From: an uncultured delta proteobacterium
GTDB taxonomy: Bacteria; Desulfobacterota; Desulfuromonadia; Geobacterales; DSM-12255
Assembly (NCBI GenBank): GCA_963787125.1
Contig: CAWBBV010000006.1
Coordinates: 160,001 to 224,000, forward strand
Length of the DNA: 64,000 nt
Direction of reading: 5' to 3'
In this document: positions 1-4,770 of the stretch, piece by piece
How positions within the stretch are numbered: the first letter of the stretch is position 1
How the letters are laid out: every line of letters begins with the position of its first letter
Position numbers and translations under genes: made by a program
Notes under the pieces: generated by a model
What the model was told of the DNA's origin: nothing
The model's database searches: none
What the model saw: only the letters and a program-made list of their open reading frames with translations

Positions 1-278
1 ACGCACCCAGGCAGGGCTTCTGCGACAATCAAGAATCGCATGAACAATTGCAACAGAGTTTCCACTGAGTAATAGATCGCAAAGGGGAATCTTTTGGAGA
101 GCATACGATAAAAATCAGAATGAACGAGCTGGTGAATACCGGCAAATAAGCGCAGTGAATCGATATCAGAATAAAGCGTATCAAGGAAATAGTTGCCAAG
201 ACCCGACTCCTGAGCTTCATAAAAACGATGCCCATTAATCAGGTCATGCTCAGCGGAAGAGAGTATCTTGATATTCAT
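1..278 (-). pseudogene. RelE/ParE-family toxin, apparently frameshifted near its 3' end; runs off the window edge
   Basis: ATG at 278 overlaps the antitoxin stop (ATGA). Reads MNIKILSSAEHDLINGHRFYEAQESGLGNYFLDTL...SKRFPFAIYYSVE. The typical C-terminal segment (VHAILDCRRSPAWVR) lies in another frame after position ~60. Confidence 0.75.
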
Positions 279-505
279 TTGACAAATGCTCTAATTCGCT
301 CTTTTGACTCCTCCCAATCAGTTAAACTCTCTTCTCCTGCAAGAAGAGCATTCTTTCGCTCTGCAAGCAAATCAAGATGCCAGTCAGGAACTGCCACCTC
401 CTCTACCCGATGACAAAAATCATCCCAAATACTCTCCATAACCTGGAATTTCTCAGAAACAGTCATCTTATCCAAATGAAGAGAAACCGGCATATACACC
501 CCCAC
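275..505 (-). CDS. Addiction-module antitoxin component
   Basis: MTVSEKFQVMESIWD...VPDWHLDLLAER...DWEESKERIR pattern; directly upstream of a ParE-like toxin. Confidence 0.85.
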   Translation of the reverse strand: MGVYMPVSLHLDKMTVSEKFQVMESIWDDFCHRVEEVAVPDWHLDLLAERKNALLAGEESLTDWEESKERIRAFVK

Positions 506-723: not shown

Positions 724-933
724 ATGAAAGCTATGGACAAGCCAACCAAAACATCAAGCAACGACCTGGCGCTTCACTTGTGTGTCTATGCCGTCATGCC
801 TTTTATGGACTGTTACTGCCAGAAAATCACCGGCAGCTCTATCCCTAAAATAGCTAAATTCTGCATGACAGGTAATAGTGACTGCCCGGTTTTCGAGAAA
901 ATAGTTGCCAAAAAAGTCAGGCAGGCGGCGTAA
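724..933 (+). CDS. Small Cys-rich hypothetical protein (start may be 733)
   Basis: 69 aa ORF with five Cys (C-x9-CYC-x14-C-x6-CP), just downstream of the sigma54 site. Confidence 0.55.
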   Translation: MKAMDKPTKTSSNDLALHLCVYAVMPFMDCYCQKITGSSIPKIAKFCMTGNSDCPVFEKIVAKKVRQAA

Positions 934-984: not shown

Positions 985-1043
985 CAGCCGAGCGACCTCT
1001 TGATTTCTTGGCAGCTCAATTAACTAATTAGAAGGAGCAGCAG

Positions 1044-1154
1044 ATGGAAGGATACAGAATTTCAAATAAAAACAGACTGAACCAGCGTCACCCCCCCGTC
1101 CCCGGAGGTGGCGGGAGGCCGCCGAGCTGTGCCGGAGATGCTGCTCGCCGGTAG
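1044..1154 (+). CDS. Putative 36-aa leader peptide MEGYRISNKNRLNQRHPPVPGGGGRPPSCAGDAARR
   Basis: Strong SD GAAGGAG at 1031-1037, ATG 1044, TAG 1152-1154; below the ORF-track size cutoff. Confidence 0.5.
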   Translation: MEGYRISNKNRLNQRHPPVPGGGGRPPSCAGDAARR

Positions 1155-1227
1155 CAAGATGCACATAATCAATTTGATTGCGGGTAAATATACTTTAAGT
1201 AAAGAAACAGTATGAAGGAGACAAAAT

Positions 1228-1728
1228 ATGAACAAAAATTTCGGAAAAATTCTTTCAATATTTGTAGCGCTTACCCTTTTGGCTCTACCGCTGGCAGCCT
1301 GGGCAGAACCGAAGGTCGCCATCTCCGTCAAGGCGGAAAAAGAGGTTACGGTTACGGTGAAAGGTAAAGCAGTTAAAAAGAAGATTGTGGCCAAAGGTTT
1401 TCTGCCTGGAGAAGAGATTATCTACACTCTGAGCTATGTCAATTCAGGAACTGAGCCGGCTAAAGATGTATTCATCACCGATCCGATACCGGCAGGCACC
1501 AGCTTCATCCCCGGCAGCGCCAGCGATGCAGACAAGGCGACTTTTTCGATCAACAACGGCAAAAGCTACAGTAAACCGACTCTGTTGACCTACGAGATCA
1601 AGTCTGCTGATGGAAAATTTCAGAAAAAAGTAGCAGCGCCTGAAGAGTATACCGACATCCGCTGGACGATCCCATCTGTCCCGGCAGGCGGGAAGGGTTC
1701 AGTCAATTTCAGGGTAAAAGTGAAGTAA
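1228..1728 (+). CDS. Secreted single DUF11 (conserved repeat) domain protein
   Basis: SD AAGGAG; signal peptide ending AWA; PGEEIIYTLSYVN...ITDPIPAG...IRWT...FRVKVK. Confidence 0.9.
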   Translation: MNKNFGKILSIFVALTLLALPLAAWAEPKVAISVKAEKEVTVTVKGKAVKKKIVAKGFLPGEEIIYTLSYVNSGTEPAKDVFITDPIPAGTSFIPGSASDADKATFSINNGKSYSKPTLLTYEIKSADGKFQKKVAAPEEYTDIRWTIPSVPAGGKGSVNFRVKVK

Positions 1729-1768
1729 TCACCATTAAAAGAAACAGTACCGATGAAAGGAGACTCTT

Positions 1769-3436
1769 ATGAACTGTAGAAGCAGAGCCAGACCGCCGAC
1801 GAATACTTCAGGCATCGGATCGACAACGGAGAAAAGAAGCAGGGCGCGACCACCGACGAATTTGCAGGAACGAGGATCACCGATGAACAGAAACCATGAA
1901 ACATACACAGACAGTACAAAGAAAATCACAAAGGAGAACGTCATGAGAAGCACACAAAGCAGTTTTCTTCACAAGCAGCGAGCCCTGCTGGGCCTCCTGG
2001 CACTGGCAGCAACAGCTGTTGTCGGCATGCCGGTCAGCGCCTCAGCCAGCTCGACCGCAGGCACGACCATCATGAACCACGTCACCGTCAACTACAAGGA
2101 TGCCGGCGGGTTCAACACCTACAACGCCGACGCCACCACCATCGTCACCGTCAACCTGGTTATGGCGCCTCTCACCCTCAGCGCTGCACCAGTAGGCAAC
2201 GCAGCACCCGGAGCTCTTTCCTGCACATCCATCGCCACCAACTACGCATCCGGCAGCACGATCAATTTCCTCTATGCTATGAGAGCAAATGCCAACGGTG
2301 CTGACACCACCGGCGGCGGCACCAAGCTCTCCATGGCGAACACGCCGGCCAACACCAACAACGTCACGGTCAACTACTCAACCCTTGACTACACGGGGGG
2401 GAGCCCGGTTGCAAATCCGGCAACCCGGATTTTCGGCGCTGCCATTCCGACCGCCGTCCTCAGCGAAACACAACTGCAGTTCCCGGGCGGCGCCCTGTCA
2501 GGCTTTGCAGTCAATGACCTCGTTGCCGTGCCCACATCTGCCGGCGTAAGAGTCTACCTGGTAACCGCTGTCAGCGTCGGAGCAGCACCGGTATACAGCC
2601 ATACCGGCAATACCACCTATACCGACGTCGGCACTTTTGTAGGCGGCGCTAATCACGTCGAAACCAAGGGAACTCTGACCCTTGGCGCCTGGGCTACCCA
2701 GTCGATCACCCTGAACGGATCCGCCACAAGCTTCGGCGGCACCCCGGCTCCGACCCTTGCCACTGGCAACACGTTAACCCCCAATACCCCGATCGGCGAA
2801 ATGGTACTTGTCAAGGTTGACGTCTCAGCCAACAACAGCAACCTGCTCGCCGGAACCGTCGACTTCACCCTGACCACGACCGACAGCGCAAGCGGCAACC
2901 CCGCAACTGCTCCATGTACTGCCGGCACGTTCCAGGCGCCGACGCTCAGTATCAAGAAAGAGGCCAGCAACTTCACTGCAGCACCCGGTACTTTTGGTGC
3001 AACCGCAACCGGTAACCCCGGCCAGATCCTCGAATACCGCGTGACCGTCACCAATGCCGGTGGTCAGGCAAGCCTGGTAAATGTCTCCGATGCAGTGCCG
3101 TCATATACCTCCCTGGTTACCGGGTTAACGTACGGCACCGGCGCAGGGACGATCTTCGCAAAAGTAACTGACAATGCTGCACGAACCGTCGAACTGACCA
3201 CAACCGTCGATTCGGAAACACAGCCGGTCGGCAACAAGCTGTCCTACGGCGATGCTGCCGGGACAGCTGCACTCTCTGCGTTGAAATTCTGGATGGGAGA
3301 CACCGCAACCAACGCAGCAGGCGGTAAGCTCCCCTACTGCAGCTCCGGCGCTTTCACCACTTCAGCAACCTGCACCGGCGGTGGCGGAACCTGGATAACA
3401 ACCCTGACGATCCTCTACCAGGTAAAAATAGACTAA
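1769..3436 (+). CDS. Secreted DUF11-domain protein, candidate major fibre subunit (alternative starts 1883 and 1943)
   Basis: Signal peptide, then AGTTIMNHVTVNY; C-terminal LSIKKE...PGQILEYRVTVTN...VSDAVP...YQVKID. Confidence 0.9.
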   Translation: MNCRSRARPPTNTSGIGSTTEKRSRARPPTNLQERGSPMNRNHETYTDSTKKITKENVMRSTQSSFLHKQRALLGLLALAATAVVGMPVSASASSTAGTTIMNHVTVNYKDAGGFNTYNADATTIVTVNLVMAPLTLSAAPVGNAAPGALSCTSIATNYASGSTINFLYAMRANANGADTTGGGTKLSMANTPANTNNVTVNYSTLDYTGGSPVANPATRIFGAAIPTAVLSETQLQFPGGALSGFAVNDLVAVPTSAGVRVYLVTAVSVGAAPVYSHTGNTTYTDVGTFVGGANHVETKGTLTLGAWATQSITLNGSATSFGGTPAPTLATGNTLTPNTPIGEMVLVKVDVSANNSNLLAGTVDFTLTTTDSASGNPATAPCTAGTFQAPTLSIKKEASNFTAAPGTFGATATGNPGQILEYRVTVTNAGGQASLVNVSDAVPSYTSLVTGLTYGTGAGTIFAKVTDNAARTVELTTTVDSETQPVGNKLSYGDAAGTAALSALKFWMGDTATNAAGGKLPYCSSGAFTTSATCTGGGGTWITTLTILYQVKID

Positions 3437-3449
3437 ACAGACCATCAGC

Positions 3450-3473
3450 CCCGCCCCTATAAAAAGGGGCGGG
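3450..3473 (+). promoter_or_regulatory. Intergenic GC-rich stem-loop without a U-tract (possible mRNA-stabilising element)
   Basis: CCCGCCCCT-ATAAAA-AGGGGCGGG, perfect 9-bp stem. Confidence 0.6.
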
Positions 3474-3492
3474 CAGCAAAAGGAGAAGACAG

Positions 3493-4770
3493 ATGAAAAA
3501 GTCGATGCAAATATTAATAACTGCGCTGTTCCTGTCGATTATGACACTTTCAGCGAGCACCGTTCTGGCGTATACAACTGCGTCCAACACCCAGATCATA
3601 AACACTGCAACGCTTAACTTTACCGGCGGCACGGCAACAGCCAGCGTCGTTGTAACTGTTGGCCTGATTCCGTCTGCGCCGGCACTCGCCATCACTAATG
3701 GCACTTCCGCCTATACTGCCGCCAACACTCCAGCCATTATTGACAGCCTCTCAATCACCTCCAGCGCCAACGGCCCGGCGCAATACACTGTCAGTGCTCT
3801 GGCAAGCGCAGTTGCCAACTCTAATCTGGCACTCAACTCAGCGATAACTGTTGCGCTGCCAAATCCGATCACCATCGGCGCAACCATCACTAATGCCAGC
3901 ACCACATGGGGAACCCTTAAAGTCCCTTCCGACGGCACTGCCGACTCAATAGTCAACAATATCCAGCTCAACTCCTGGATCACCTTTAACGTCGGCACCG
4001 GCAACATTACCAGACAGGTACTTTCTGTAACTGACCCTGGCACAACAGGGACTGCAACCATAACCTTTGTCACAGCCGGTGGAGATCCTGCCACAGTCCC
4101 GGCCGGTACGCCAATCTATGAGAAGGTTTTTGTAAATCTCACGGTTGTTCCCGGAACAGTCGCTACCCCCGGAACTCCGATCGACGTGACCGTAACTGCA
4201 ACAGTTGCAACACCAGGCGTAGCAGTCAGCCCAACGATTACAAATGGTGCACCCAACCATTGGACAACCCCCCCTGCCGGCGTAACAATCGACAAATATG
4301 TGCGTAACGCCACAACTGATGCGTCTACTTTTTTCATAGCACCAGGAGTAGCGCCGTCACCATACAGCACCACTATTAACGGGGCAACCCACAACTACTA
4401 CAGAAGTACTTCTACCTCCGGTGTCAGTGCCAAACCGGGTGAAGTTCTCGAATACCTCGTTGAAGCTACCAATACAAGCGGCCCACCATCTGCAGTCCCT
4501 GCCATGGATATTGCCGGCTGTTTCATCACCGACGCACTCCAGACAACCTATGTCACTCTTACCCTCGGCCAAATGTCCGGCGGCAAAGACCTCTGGTACA
4601 TTCCACCTGCTGGCGGAGTTGGCGCTAACTACAACATAGCCGATCTCGGCTCTTTTGTGTCGCCGACACTCTCCGTGAACGTTGGCAACGGCGCCGGGGC
4701 AGGAGCAGCTACAGGAACCATTCCGGCCGGAAAGAAAGTCTCGATTCTTTACCGTGTAACCGTGCTCTAA
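3493..4770 (+). CDS. Secreted DUF11-domain protein, candidate second fibre subunit
   Basis: Signal peptide, then NTQIINTATLNF; C-terminal VTIDKYVRN...PGEVLEYLVEATN...ITDAL...YRVTVL. Confidence 0.9.
   Translation: MKKSMQILITALFLSIMTLSASTVLAYTTASNTQIINTATLNFTGGTATASVVVTVGLIPSAPALAITNGTSAYTAANTPAIIDSLSITSSANGPAQYTVSALASAVANSNLALNSAITVALPNPITIGATITNASTTWGTLKVPSDGTADSIVNNIQLNSWITFNVGTGNITRQVLSVTDPGTTGTATITFVTAGGDPATVPAGTPIYEKVFVNLTVVPGTVATPGTPIDVTVTATVATPGVAVSPTITNGAPNHWTTPPAGVTIDKYVRNATTDASTFFIAPGVAPSPYSTTINGATHNYYRSTSTSGVSAKPGEVLEYLVEATNTSGPPSAVPAMDIAGCFITDALQTTYVTLTLGQMSGGKDLWYIPPAGGVGANYNIADLGSFVSPTLSVNVGNGAGAGAATGTIPAGKKVSILYRVTVL

Follow-up and report, generated by a model that had tools for sequence, protein, structure and literature searches.

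A putative ribosome-stalling leader peptide upstream of a DUF11-type surface-protein gene in an uncultured member of the Geobacterales

Introduction

This report concerns a short reading frame that precedes the gene for a large secreted DUF11-type repeat protein in an uncultured delta proteobacterium of the Geobacterales (GenBank assembly GCA_963787125.1). We analysed a window of 64,000 nucleotides (nt), positions 160,001 to 224,000 of contig CAWBBV010000006.1, and all coordinates without a locus label refer to this window. On the + strand, a gene for a secreted DUF11-repeat protein of 166 amino acids (1228..1728; Pfam DUF11, E=1.5e-8; NCBIfam TIGR01451, E=4.9e-14) stops 40 nt upstream of an ATG at 1769, and 6 nt before this ATG lies the Shine-Dalgarno (SD) sequence AAGGAG (1757..1762, +). 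The frame that begins there, which we call the leader, runs without a stop for 58 codons (1769..1942, +; peptide MNCRSRARPPTNTSGIGSTTEKRSRARPPTNLQERGSPMNRNHETYTDSTKKITKENV) and passes in frame into the main gene (1943..3436, +), encoding a secreted DUF11-type repeat protein of 497 amino acids, the 'major subunit' (TIGR01451 repeat, E=8.7e-6). The main gene has an AAGGAG of its own (1931..1936, +), again 6 nt before ATG 1943, and its product starts with a predicted signal peptide (1943-2047, +), read by eye as residues 1-35 and ending in ASA. Taken from ATG 1769, the whole open reading frame (ORF) comprises 555 codons. Genes for a 425-residue paralogue-like protein and then for a 2257-residue protein with an OmpA domain follow downstream.

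A previous inspection of this DNA from its letters alone (the sequence-only reading) had noticed that the nonapeptide RSRARPPTN occurs twice in the leader, and proposed that the 58 residues are a translated extension of the subunit, selected as protein, which might pause ribosomes, assist targeting or yield long and short isoforms. We compared the leader with homologous loci in the Geobacterales and the Zetaproteobacteria and weighed the explanations that these comparisons allow. There is good evidence that the leader is translated and selected as an amino-acid sequence; the term regulatory leader peptide probably suits it better than that of a conserved subunit extension, and it is probably not a functional part of the protein. 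We propose, tentatively, that it slows or arrests the ribosome.

Results

A duplicated peptide in the leader frame

The two copies of the repeat, AGAAGCAGAGCCAGACCGCCGACGAAT (1778-1804, +) and AGAAGCAGGGCGCGACCACCGACGAAT (1835-1861, +), both read RSRARPPTN; they start 57 nt apart and are identical at 23/27 bases. Their four differences, at repeat positions 9, 12, 13 and 18 (window positions 1786, 1789, 1790 and 1795), occupy codon positions 3, 3, 1 and 3 and are every one silent, just as the sequence-only reading had it, and we likewise find its three ATGs (1769, 1883 and 1943) in a single frame and an AAGGAG 6 nt upstream of both the first and the last. The copies encode the same peptide only in the frame of ATG 1769, the other two frames sharing 5/10 and 6/10 residues. 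Within the 64-kb window no other two 27-mers lying 27-120 nt apart match at 23 or more bases, and no such pair arose in 30 first-order Markov simulations; the repeat exceeds chance expectation. Its 14-base core occurs at these two sites and, with one mismatch, at one further site in the whole 4.2-Mb genome. Of the 81 single-base changes that could occur, 20 would be silent, which gives a probability of ~0.0037 for four silent changes out of four, a figure calculated post hoc.

The repeat forms the head of a longer tandem unit of 57 nt. Unit 1 (1778-1834, +) ends in the tail TSGIGSTTEK and unit 2 (1835-1891, +) in the tail LQERGSPMNR; the tails are identical at only 12/30 bases, with GGATC still in register between GIGST of the first and ERGSP of the second. 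This ERGSP block (1868..1882, +) contains RGSP (1871-1882), a candidate for an arrest core acting close to the peptidyl-transferase centre. It appears from this arrangement that a unit of 19 codons was duplicated whole and in frame, and that its head was then retained as peptide in both copies and ERGSP in the second copy only, the block of unit 1 having decayed to GIGST. The Tandem Repeats Finder (TRF) program did not call the duplication in our run, because the overall divergence of the units is too high. Within the codons of RGSP lies an SD-like GAGGA (1872-1876, +), which the sequence-only reading had not listed, 6 nt before the second in-frame ATG (1883..1885, +; starting MNRNHE...).

The leader in Geobacterales relatives

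A search with the main protein matched 27 of 239 Geobacterales genomes at E <= 1e-8, and leaders were read in the best 16 of these 27 loci; below, G000 denotes the present genome, G001, G003 and G078 its Geobacterales relatives, L numbers the homologous loci, and P0001 to P0003 the database proteins of one cluster added from a collection of 5.8 billion proteins. A DUF11 gene precedes the leader site in 16/16 loci. Equally constant is an AAGG-type SD before the start of the signal peptide (16/16), and the alignment of orthologues begins at the Met of ATG 1943. An SD-led upstream start is found 29-67 nt past the DUF11 stop in 14/16 loci, and the frames behind it range from two codons to fusion with the main gene.

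The relative G001, whose main protein is 59-60% identical to that of G000, has a frame of 67 codons beginning MNNRSRARPPNSYSERGSP..., with a single unit. Its ATG lies 115 nt from the main ATG, so that leader and main gene are read in different frames; the leader ends 88 nt inside the gene. G003 (main protein 32-35% identical) has a separate and degenerate ORF of 22 codons, MIDRIRARQPTTTSENGADNEQ-stop, lacking both features: it reads RARQP, and ENGA in place of RGSP. The upstream frame of G078 is VNRNRGRPAAHPTM-stop. Ten further loci (within L021-L031), nine of them in one other genus, carry mini-ORFs of 2-5 codons behind a strong SD (MTQD, MTQN, MTQ, MIQI, MPQN, MIKI, MS and MKNGT), which start 44-67 nt past the DUF11 stop, where G000 has its long leader. 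At L032 and L033 the upstream start is absent.

These loci have peculiarities of their own. Several leaders of another Geobacterales genus (L022:1365-1451 and L027:1390-1457, also L021 and L029) contain perfect 9-nt tandem arrays, CAGCAGTAA x9.7 and AGCAGTATC x7.6, which sit between a mini-ORF of 3-4 codons and the main SD and vary in copy number between species; the unit can be read as AAC-AGC-AGU, three A-R-N triplets. Both L032 and L033 have a GC-rich inverted repeat after the DUF11 stop, followed in L033 by TTTTT, which by eye resembles a terminator, and the main gene may be transcribed separately in these relatives.

The proteins P0001 and P0002, each of 535 residues, begin MNNRSRARPPTNISERGSPMNRQLK... 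and reach MRKE... and the signal peptide 40 residues in, with one unit, in frame and free of stops; P0001 is 72% identical to the ORF of G000 over a local BLASTP alignment of 540 columns, in which unit 2 of G000 is paired with the single unit of P0001. The third member of the cluster, P0003, was called from the main Met. Hence linkage between leader and gene is in frame in G000, P0001 and P0002 and out of frame in G001, and in G003 a stop ends the conserved part. The 57-nt tandem duplication is confined to G000, the other three leader-bearing sequences having a single unit. G003 and P0001/P0002 have a start reading MN at the relative position of ATG 1883, in the frame of the main gene; G001 has none there.

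Other searches added little. Scanning genome contigs with the main protein gave nine loci, and a scan of metagenomes gave three, none with a leader of the Geobacterales type. As queries, the 58-residue leader matched none of six candidates among proteins of 31-102 residues, and region 1-62 none of 28 candidates among proteins of 30-304 residues, so that no shorter form of the leader protein was found in these two size ranges; region 1-62 matched one (P0001) of 52 candidates among proteins of 305-972 residues. A search of the ESM Atlas with residues 1-40 of P0001 returned no usable match. The composite motif, sought in the 239 Geobacterales genomes, was recovered in G000 and G001 with seven other matches against eight control matches, and thus occurs at chance level elsewhere in the order. 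The leader-bearing sequences number four: G000, G001, P0001 and P0002.

This distribution bears on the proposal of the sequence-only reading that the leader is a true N-terminal extension, read from ATG 1769 or 1883, whose hydrophilic and basic character would serve the timing of export or targeting. Several observations would suit it: leader and gene run together without a stop in G000, P0001 and P0002, the latter two having been called in the long form; the leaders of G000 (less one unit) and P0001, at 39 and 40 codons, differ by a whole codon; G003 keeps its in-frame MN start 19 codons before the main start; and the peptide itself is under selection. Against these stand the leader of G001, which is out of frame, and that of G003, whose conserved part is cut off by a stop, as well as the main ATG with its own AAGGAG and signal peptide, conserved in 16/16 loci and chosen as the start of P0003. 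Conservation is poor over the 20 codons that lead from RGSP to the main start. Moreover, an open frame costs little here because the stretch is poor in T (A71 G44 C41 T18 over the 174 nt of 1769-1942): it has no stop in the leader frame and only two stops per 58 codons in each of the others. Scans of the G000 leader, the G001 upstream ORF (uORF) and the L048 uORF described below against Pfam and NCBIfam produced no family match (one noise match, E=0.2), and the leader thus has no match to any extended-signal-peptide family in Pfam. It is hydrophilic along all 58 residues, with no hydrophobic run visible by eye, and a role in targeting has no support. Nor was a twin-arginine signal seen by eye. 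The extended signal peptide region (ESPR) of large Gram-negative surface proteins likewise adds N-terminal residues before a Sec signal peptide, and differs from the present leader in this lack of a Pfam match, in the leader's hydrophilicity and in the in-frame linkage, which is not found in all relatives. We consider a genuine extension unlikely. With the duplication in one genome only, G001 out of frame, a separate ORF in G003 and mini-ORFs in ten loci, the idea of a conserved extension of 58 residues is not supported. Long and short isoforms are possible in G000, P0001 and P0002, since no stop separates leader from gene.

Conservation of the peptide

What the relatives preserve is one unit of the form MN(N)RSRARPP(T)N-x2-3-ERGSP, kept in all four leader-bearing sequences: G001 has MNNRSRARPPN..ERGSP and P0001/P0002 have MNNRSRARPPTNISERGSPMNR. 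The search for RARPP in orthologues that the sequence-only reading had suggested thus succeeds in G001 and P0001/P0002 and fails in G003, with RARQP, and in the ten loci that have mini-ORFs only. Within the core blocks G000 and G001 show no replacement change, and the gap RPP-x5-RGSP is identical in unit 2 of G000 and in G001. Codons identical with those of G001 number 6/7 in copy 1, 4/7 in copy 2 and 2/5 in ERGSP, which is GAA CGA GGA TCA CCG in G000 and GAA AGG GGA TCC CCC in G001, so that 4/15 bases differ, all of them silently. For comparison, 143/287 identical residues of the main gene use the same codon in the two genomes, and 72/161 fourfold-degenerate sites within identical residues have the same base; silent sites of the main gene are near saturation, and neutral intergenic DNA at this distance should have lost any reading frame. 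Because the differences in the core are synonymous while silent sites of the main gene are near saturation, there is good evidence that the leader is translated in the frame of ATG 1769 and selected as an amino-acid sequence. To this extent the sequence-only reading was right.

We hold a neutral origin to be very improbable, in which the repeat would stem from a tandem duplication of fairly recent date in intergenic DNA without function and would owe its silent pattern to luck. Its occurrence in one genome only would agree with such an origin, and the probability of ~0.004 is, as said, post hoc. The decay of the units is very uneven, however, with 23/27 bases matching in the heads and 12/30 in the tails, and the single-copy module is kept as a peptide in relatives with silent sites near saturation.

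RNA-level explanations

A second class of explanation places the selected feature in the nucleic acid. The repeat could be an RNA or DNA element, for example two sites bound by a regulator or an RNA-binding protein, or purine-rich ARN or SD-like tracts, its coding capacity being incidental. Thus CAGAGCCAGAC is identical in copy 1, G001 and G003; copy 1 shares its six of seven codons with G001 where ~50% would be expected; RGSP overlaps the SD-like GAGGA; and the 9-nt tandem arrays occupy the same leader in another genus. The copies differ, however, at 4/27 bases, and these differences are silent in the leader frame alone. The silent divergence of 4/15 bases in ERGSP and the confinement of the 14-base core to this locus, apart from the one-mismatch match, argue in the same direction. 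Nor was any structure or Rfam family found. Rfam gave no match at gathering score in the whole 64-kb window, and three noise matches only (best E=0.84) for bases 1650-2050 at E <= 10. The leaders of G000 (z=+1.39) and G001 (z=+1.34) fold no better than their shuffled versions, of which 185/200 and 187/200, respectively, fold at least as well. ARN triplets (Hfq-type) and GGA motifs (CsrA-type), estimated by hand, are not enriched in the G000 leader. We regard an RNA or DNA element as improbable. No promoter-like or terminator-like site was found on the + strand in 1000-3600. The idea that an arginine-rich peptide binds its own mRNA was rejected, since the hairpin that it would bind is absent.

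Upstream translation might also matter without any stalling by the peptide: a strong ribosome-binding site would load ribosomes, thereby stabilising the mRNA or coupling or occluding the main start, and the conserved residues would answer to some other constraint. In favour of this, what 14/16 Geobacterales loci share is an SD-led start 29-67 nt past the DUF11 stop, and the leaders of G000 and G001 are unstructured and A-rich. Both modes of action are reported from Sinorhizobium, where, in the accessible portions of the literature, uORFs overlapping the main start act by translational coupling and close upstream ribosome-binding sites by occlusion. This would leave unexplained why the amino acids of RSRARPP and ERGSP are kept at fixed spacing amid drifting silent sites. 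It is in our view rather unlikely, and the Zetaproteobacterial loci raise a second difficulty for it.

Upstream frames in Zetaproteobacteria

The main protein matched 20 of 133 Zetaproteobacterial genomes at E <= 1e-10, and 19 loci were read. Eight of the 19 (L048, at 1202-1273, and L049, L050, L051, L052, L053, L055 and L056) have a uORF of 19-24 codons that follows the DUF11 gene, precedes the main gene and has the end EGPP-UGA. Its last residues are [YF]-x-I-R-E-G-P-P in seven of the eight and T-W-E-G-P-P in L049, where T-W replaces I-R; N-terminally the uORFs vary. Among the seven, all variation in the last six codons is silent: Ile is ATT or ATA, Arg is CGG, CGA, CGT or AGA, Glu is GAG or GAA, Gly is GGG, GGA or GGT, and the first Pro is CCA or CCG. 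The last Pro is always CCA, so that the stop overlaps an ATG, which opens an ORF of 4-6 codons (MNAL, MNGC, MNGR, MNICKG, MNTL or MSVF). Some of the silent changes disrupt a small predicted stem around the stop. The exact pattern [YF]-x-I-R-E-G-P-P occurs once in each of seven of the 133 genomes, always at this locus, against one control match. Why I-R-E-G-P-P-stop should be kept through synonymous codon changes would go unexplained if upstream translation mattered without the peptide.

Of the other 11 loci, one is truncated, two have other short frames, seven are without a comparable uORF and one, L067, has a different uORF of 44 codons, MHKQRRYKHLARGDPPPRMHAPPGKK..., which follows directly on the DUF11 stop, contains PPP and HAPP, and overlaps the main start codon at its end. 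HAPP is a RAPP-like core according to the accessible text of PMC10987492. Arrest-like leader peptides thus appear, from these motifs, to recur in the DUF11 operon family. The spacer between the EGPP uORF and the main gene measures ~135-170 nt as read from the DNA. Within it, three hairpins are kept in L048:1177-1440 and six aligned loci; one has a 7-bp stem, with changes on both sides at 5/7 pairs, and the loop GAGGG, and the other two have tetraloops of the UNCG type, the second lying directly upstream of the main SD.

Other features of the window

Upstream of the operon, at 724-933 (+), an ORF encodes a Cys-rich protein of 69 residues (...PFMDCYC...SIPKIAKFCMTGNSDCPVFEK...), without a match in Pfam or NCBIfam; the G003 locus has a clear counterpart of it in the corresponding position (L003:3719-3925, minus strand). 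The start of the window (3-505, minus strand) holds two short adjacent ORFs, 275-505 (76 residues) and 3-278 (92 residues, open-ended), which, at a guess, could be a toxin-antitoxin-like pair.

Discussion

The leader is probably an upstream frame that varies freely in its linkage to the main frame, the stop before the main gene being merely absent in G000. It has its own AAGGAG, lies upstream of the main gene on the same strand, and its peptide is kept in G001 though out of frame there. We hold it quite possible, if short of probable, that 1769-1942 encodes a translated leader peptide, acting in cis, by which ribosomes are paused or arrested and translation of the DUF11-type subunit is tuned; both the stalling and its effect on the main gene we infer from the motifs and their position. 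The motif in question is RGSP, conserved in G001, P0001 and P0002. In the portion of PMC10987492 available to us, RGSP stands on a list of arrest cores with experimentally shown arrest, from the SecM of Mannheimia, and the repeated RARPP is not on that list. Arrest peptides of this class are marked by an essential Arg and by a Pro read in the A site, within a core from a published set that, besides RGSP, includes RAGP, RAPG, RAPP, RGPP, HAPP and QAPP. The eight residues HAPIRGSP are sufficient for arrest, as the accessible text of PMC12526060 has it. According to PMC12992588, RAP-type cores do not tolerate replacement of their Arg, and ribosomes are arrested by RxPP where x is G, A, S or P. 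The published status of RGSP as an arrest core, together with the two Pro-Pro sites of the leader, makes the pausing device suggested by the sequence-only reading plausible.

A mechanism may be sketched as follows. The selected part would be an N-terminal module, MN-x-RSRARPP-x5-RGSP, that acts from inside the ribosome. With RGSP at the peptidyl-transferase centre, elongation would be slowed or arrested, as in arrest peptides of the SecM type; with RGS in the P site, the Arg/Pro-rich RSRARPP would be found 6-15 residues further back, inside the exit tunnel. Peptides rich in Arg and Pro are known to bind there, as the proline-rich antimicrobial peptides have taught. A ribosome held at ~1880 would leave the main ribosome-binding site (1931-1945, with the SD at 1931-1936) free and would keep following ribosomes from reading through over it, so that the stall might set the amount of DUF11-type subunit initiated at ATG 1943 and might protect the mRNA. 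The 57-nt duplication would have added a second RSRARPPTN, retained as peptide, while RGSP of unit 1 decayed. Read-through products may still exist in G000.

The nearest parallel is SecM. The four-residue core of Mannheimia succiniciproducens SecM (HAPIRGSP), as given in the accessible source, is identical with that of the G000 leader; the motif of E. coli SecM (FSTPVWISQAQGIRAGP) is bipartite, and the leader likewise has a second conserved element ~6-15 residues upstream; and it too precedes the presumed regulated gene on the same mRNA. I-R-A-G-P of E. coli SecM, again in the available text, is like I-R-E-G-P of the Zetaproteobacterial uORFs. Unlike SecM, the leader has no signal peptide, does not precede secA and lacks its own stop in three of four cases. 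It has Glu before the Arg where SecM has Ile, and any arrest by it is putative. Since a signal peptide is absent, pulling force could not release a stall of this leader.

A second parallel is provided by the arrest uORFs with RAPP or RGPP (ApdA, ApdP, ApcA, the RQH family, seven uORFs of Streptomyces lividans, and CruR), which as published are likewise short frames upstream of a gene, in which Pro-Pro or Gly-Pro follows an Arg, have variable N-terminal parts and precede diverse genes, including those of outer-membrane proteins. RAPP/RGPP uORFs are reported to stand upstream of genes with many functions, and the majority carry a localisation signal and have their motif at the C-terminus. By comparison, the RARPP of the leader has Arg directly before Pro-Pro and Ala before Arg, rather than R-x-P-P; its motif lies away from the C-terminus and a localisation signal is absent. 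As far as the available texts of PMC10987492 and PMC12992588 go, the published searches were aimed at RAPP and RGPP, and RARPP, RGSP before a non-sec gene and REGPP would escape them.

Two further systems resemble the present leaders in part. TnaC of the tna operon, whose mechanism includes a Rho-dependent part, is comparable with the Zetaproteobacterial uORFs only, which have 19-24 codons and a Pro last before the UGA stop. Pauses at polyproline that depend on elongation factor P (EF-P) are known, such as that of the CadC type; G000 likewise has two Pro-Pro sites (RPPT) and G001 has PPN, and they differ in being di-proline rather than tri-proline, with QP in one relative. By published accounts, TnaC is a peptide of 24 residues that becomes arrested, as TnaC-tRNAPro, when the ribosome reaches a UGA stop, and its action lies in the inhibition of release factor 2 (RF2); the Zetaproteobacterial uORFs have no sequence similarity to it, and the G000 leader has no stop at all. 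RAPP-type arrests are reported to be refractory to EF-P.

Several points weigh against stalling. Most RAPP-like sequences from ordinary proteins do not arrest, on the evidence of the accessible text of PMC10987492, and for this reason the RGSP motif alone proves little. RARPP falls outside the published cores of the RxPP, RAGP and RAPG types. The motif is not near a C-terminus, the stop being absent in G000, P0001 and P0002 and the motif occupying residues 16-19 of 67 in G001, and the leader has neither a signal peptide nor a membrane segment, unlike most published arrest peptides of the class. Stalling cannot be a function common to the whole operon family, because G003 has lost RARPP and RGSP and ten loci have only mini-ORFs of 2-5 codons. 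As the RGSP codons overlap the SD-like GAGGA and precede ATG 1883, part of their conservation may serve initiation there, and this may be the real constraint on them. The core blocks were picked by amino-acid identity, so that the statement that all differences are silent is partly circular. Copy 1 is unusually conserved at silent sites (6/7 codons as in G001, and 5/7 in the copy of G003), which may point to a further constraint, on the RNA, close to the start. Leader-bearing lineages are effectively three, because P0001 and P0002 share one 90% cluster. Finally, G001 is a metagenome-assembled genome of 81% completeness, and its difference in frame could for that reason in principle be an assembly error.

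Should the leader stall, it and the Zetaproteobacterial uORFs might together represent a signal-less, SecM-like class of arrest peptide, as yet undescribed, in the mRNA of DUF11-type surface-fibre operons, with the forms RSRARPP-x5-RGSP and Y-x-I-R-E-G-P-P-UGA and responding to a cytosolic cue; this wider proposal we regard as doubtful. The cue (a small molecule, a translation factor or the supply of proline) would have to be cytosolic, since the force of export cannot release such peptides. Judged by these comparisons, what would be new here is a SecM- or RAPP-like leader without a signal and without its own stop before a surface-protein gene; our literature search, which was narrow and is a weak basis for calling anything 'not in print', found no paper on a leader peptide before DUF11 genes.

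If there were such a class, synthesis of the major fibre subunit would be conditional on a cytosolic cue, and the tunnel-binding element would exist in G000, through its duplication, as a natural variant with two modules. Stalling by the leader would extend control by arrest peptides from the secretion machinery and metal uptake to the principal component of a cell-surface structure in iron-cycling bacteria, and RSRARPP-x5-RGSP and I-R-E-G-P-P-stop would be arrest sequences without an export signal, useful for asking what besides pulling force releases a stall of the SecM type. For annotation, the protein is probably shorter than the 555 residues of the ORF from ATG 1769 or the 535 residues called in relatives; the start that is conserved is ATG 1943. 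Even if the leader does not stall ribosomes, it would still be a short selected peptide where gene callers see a mere N-terminal extension.

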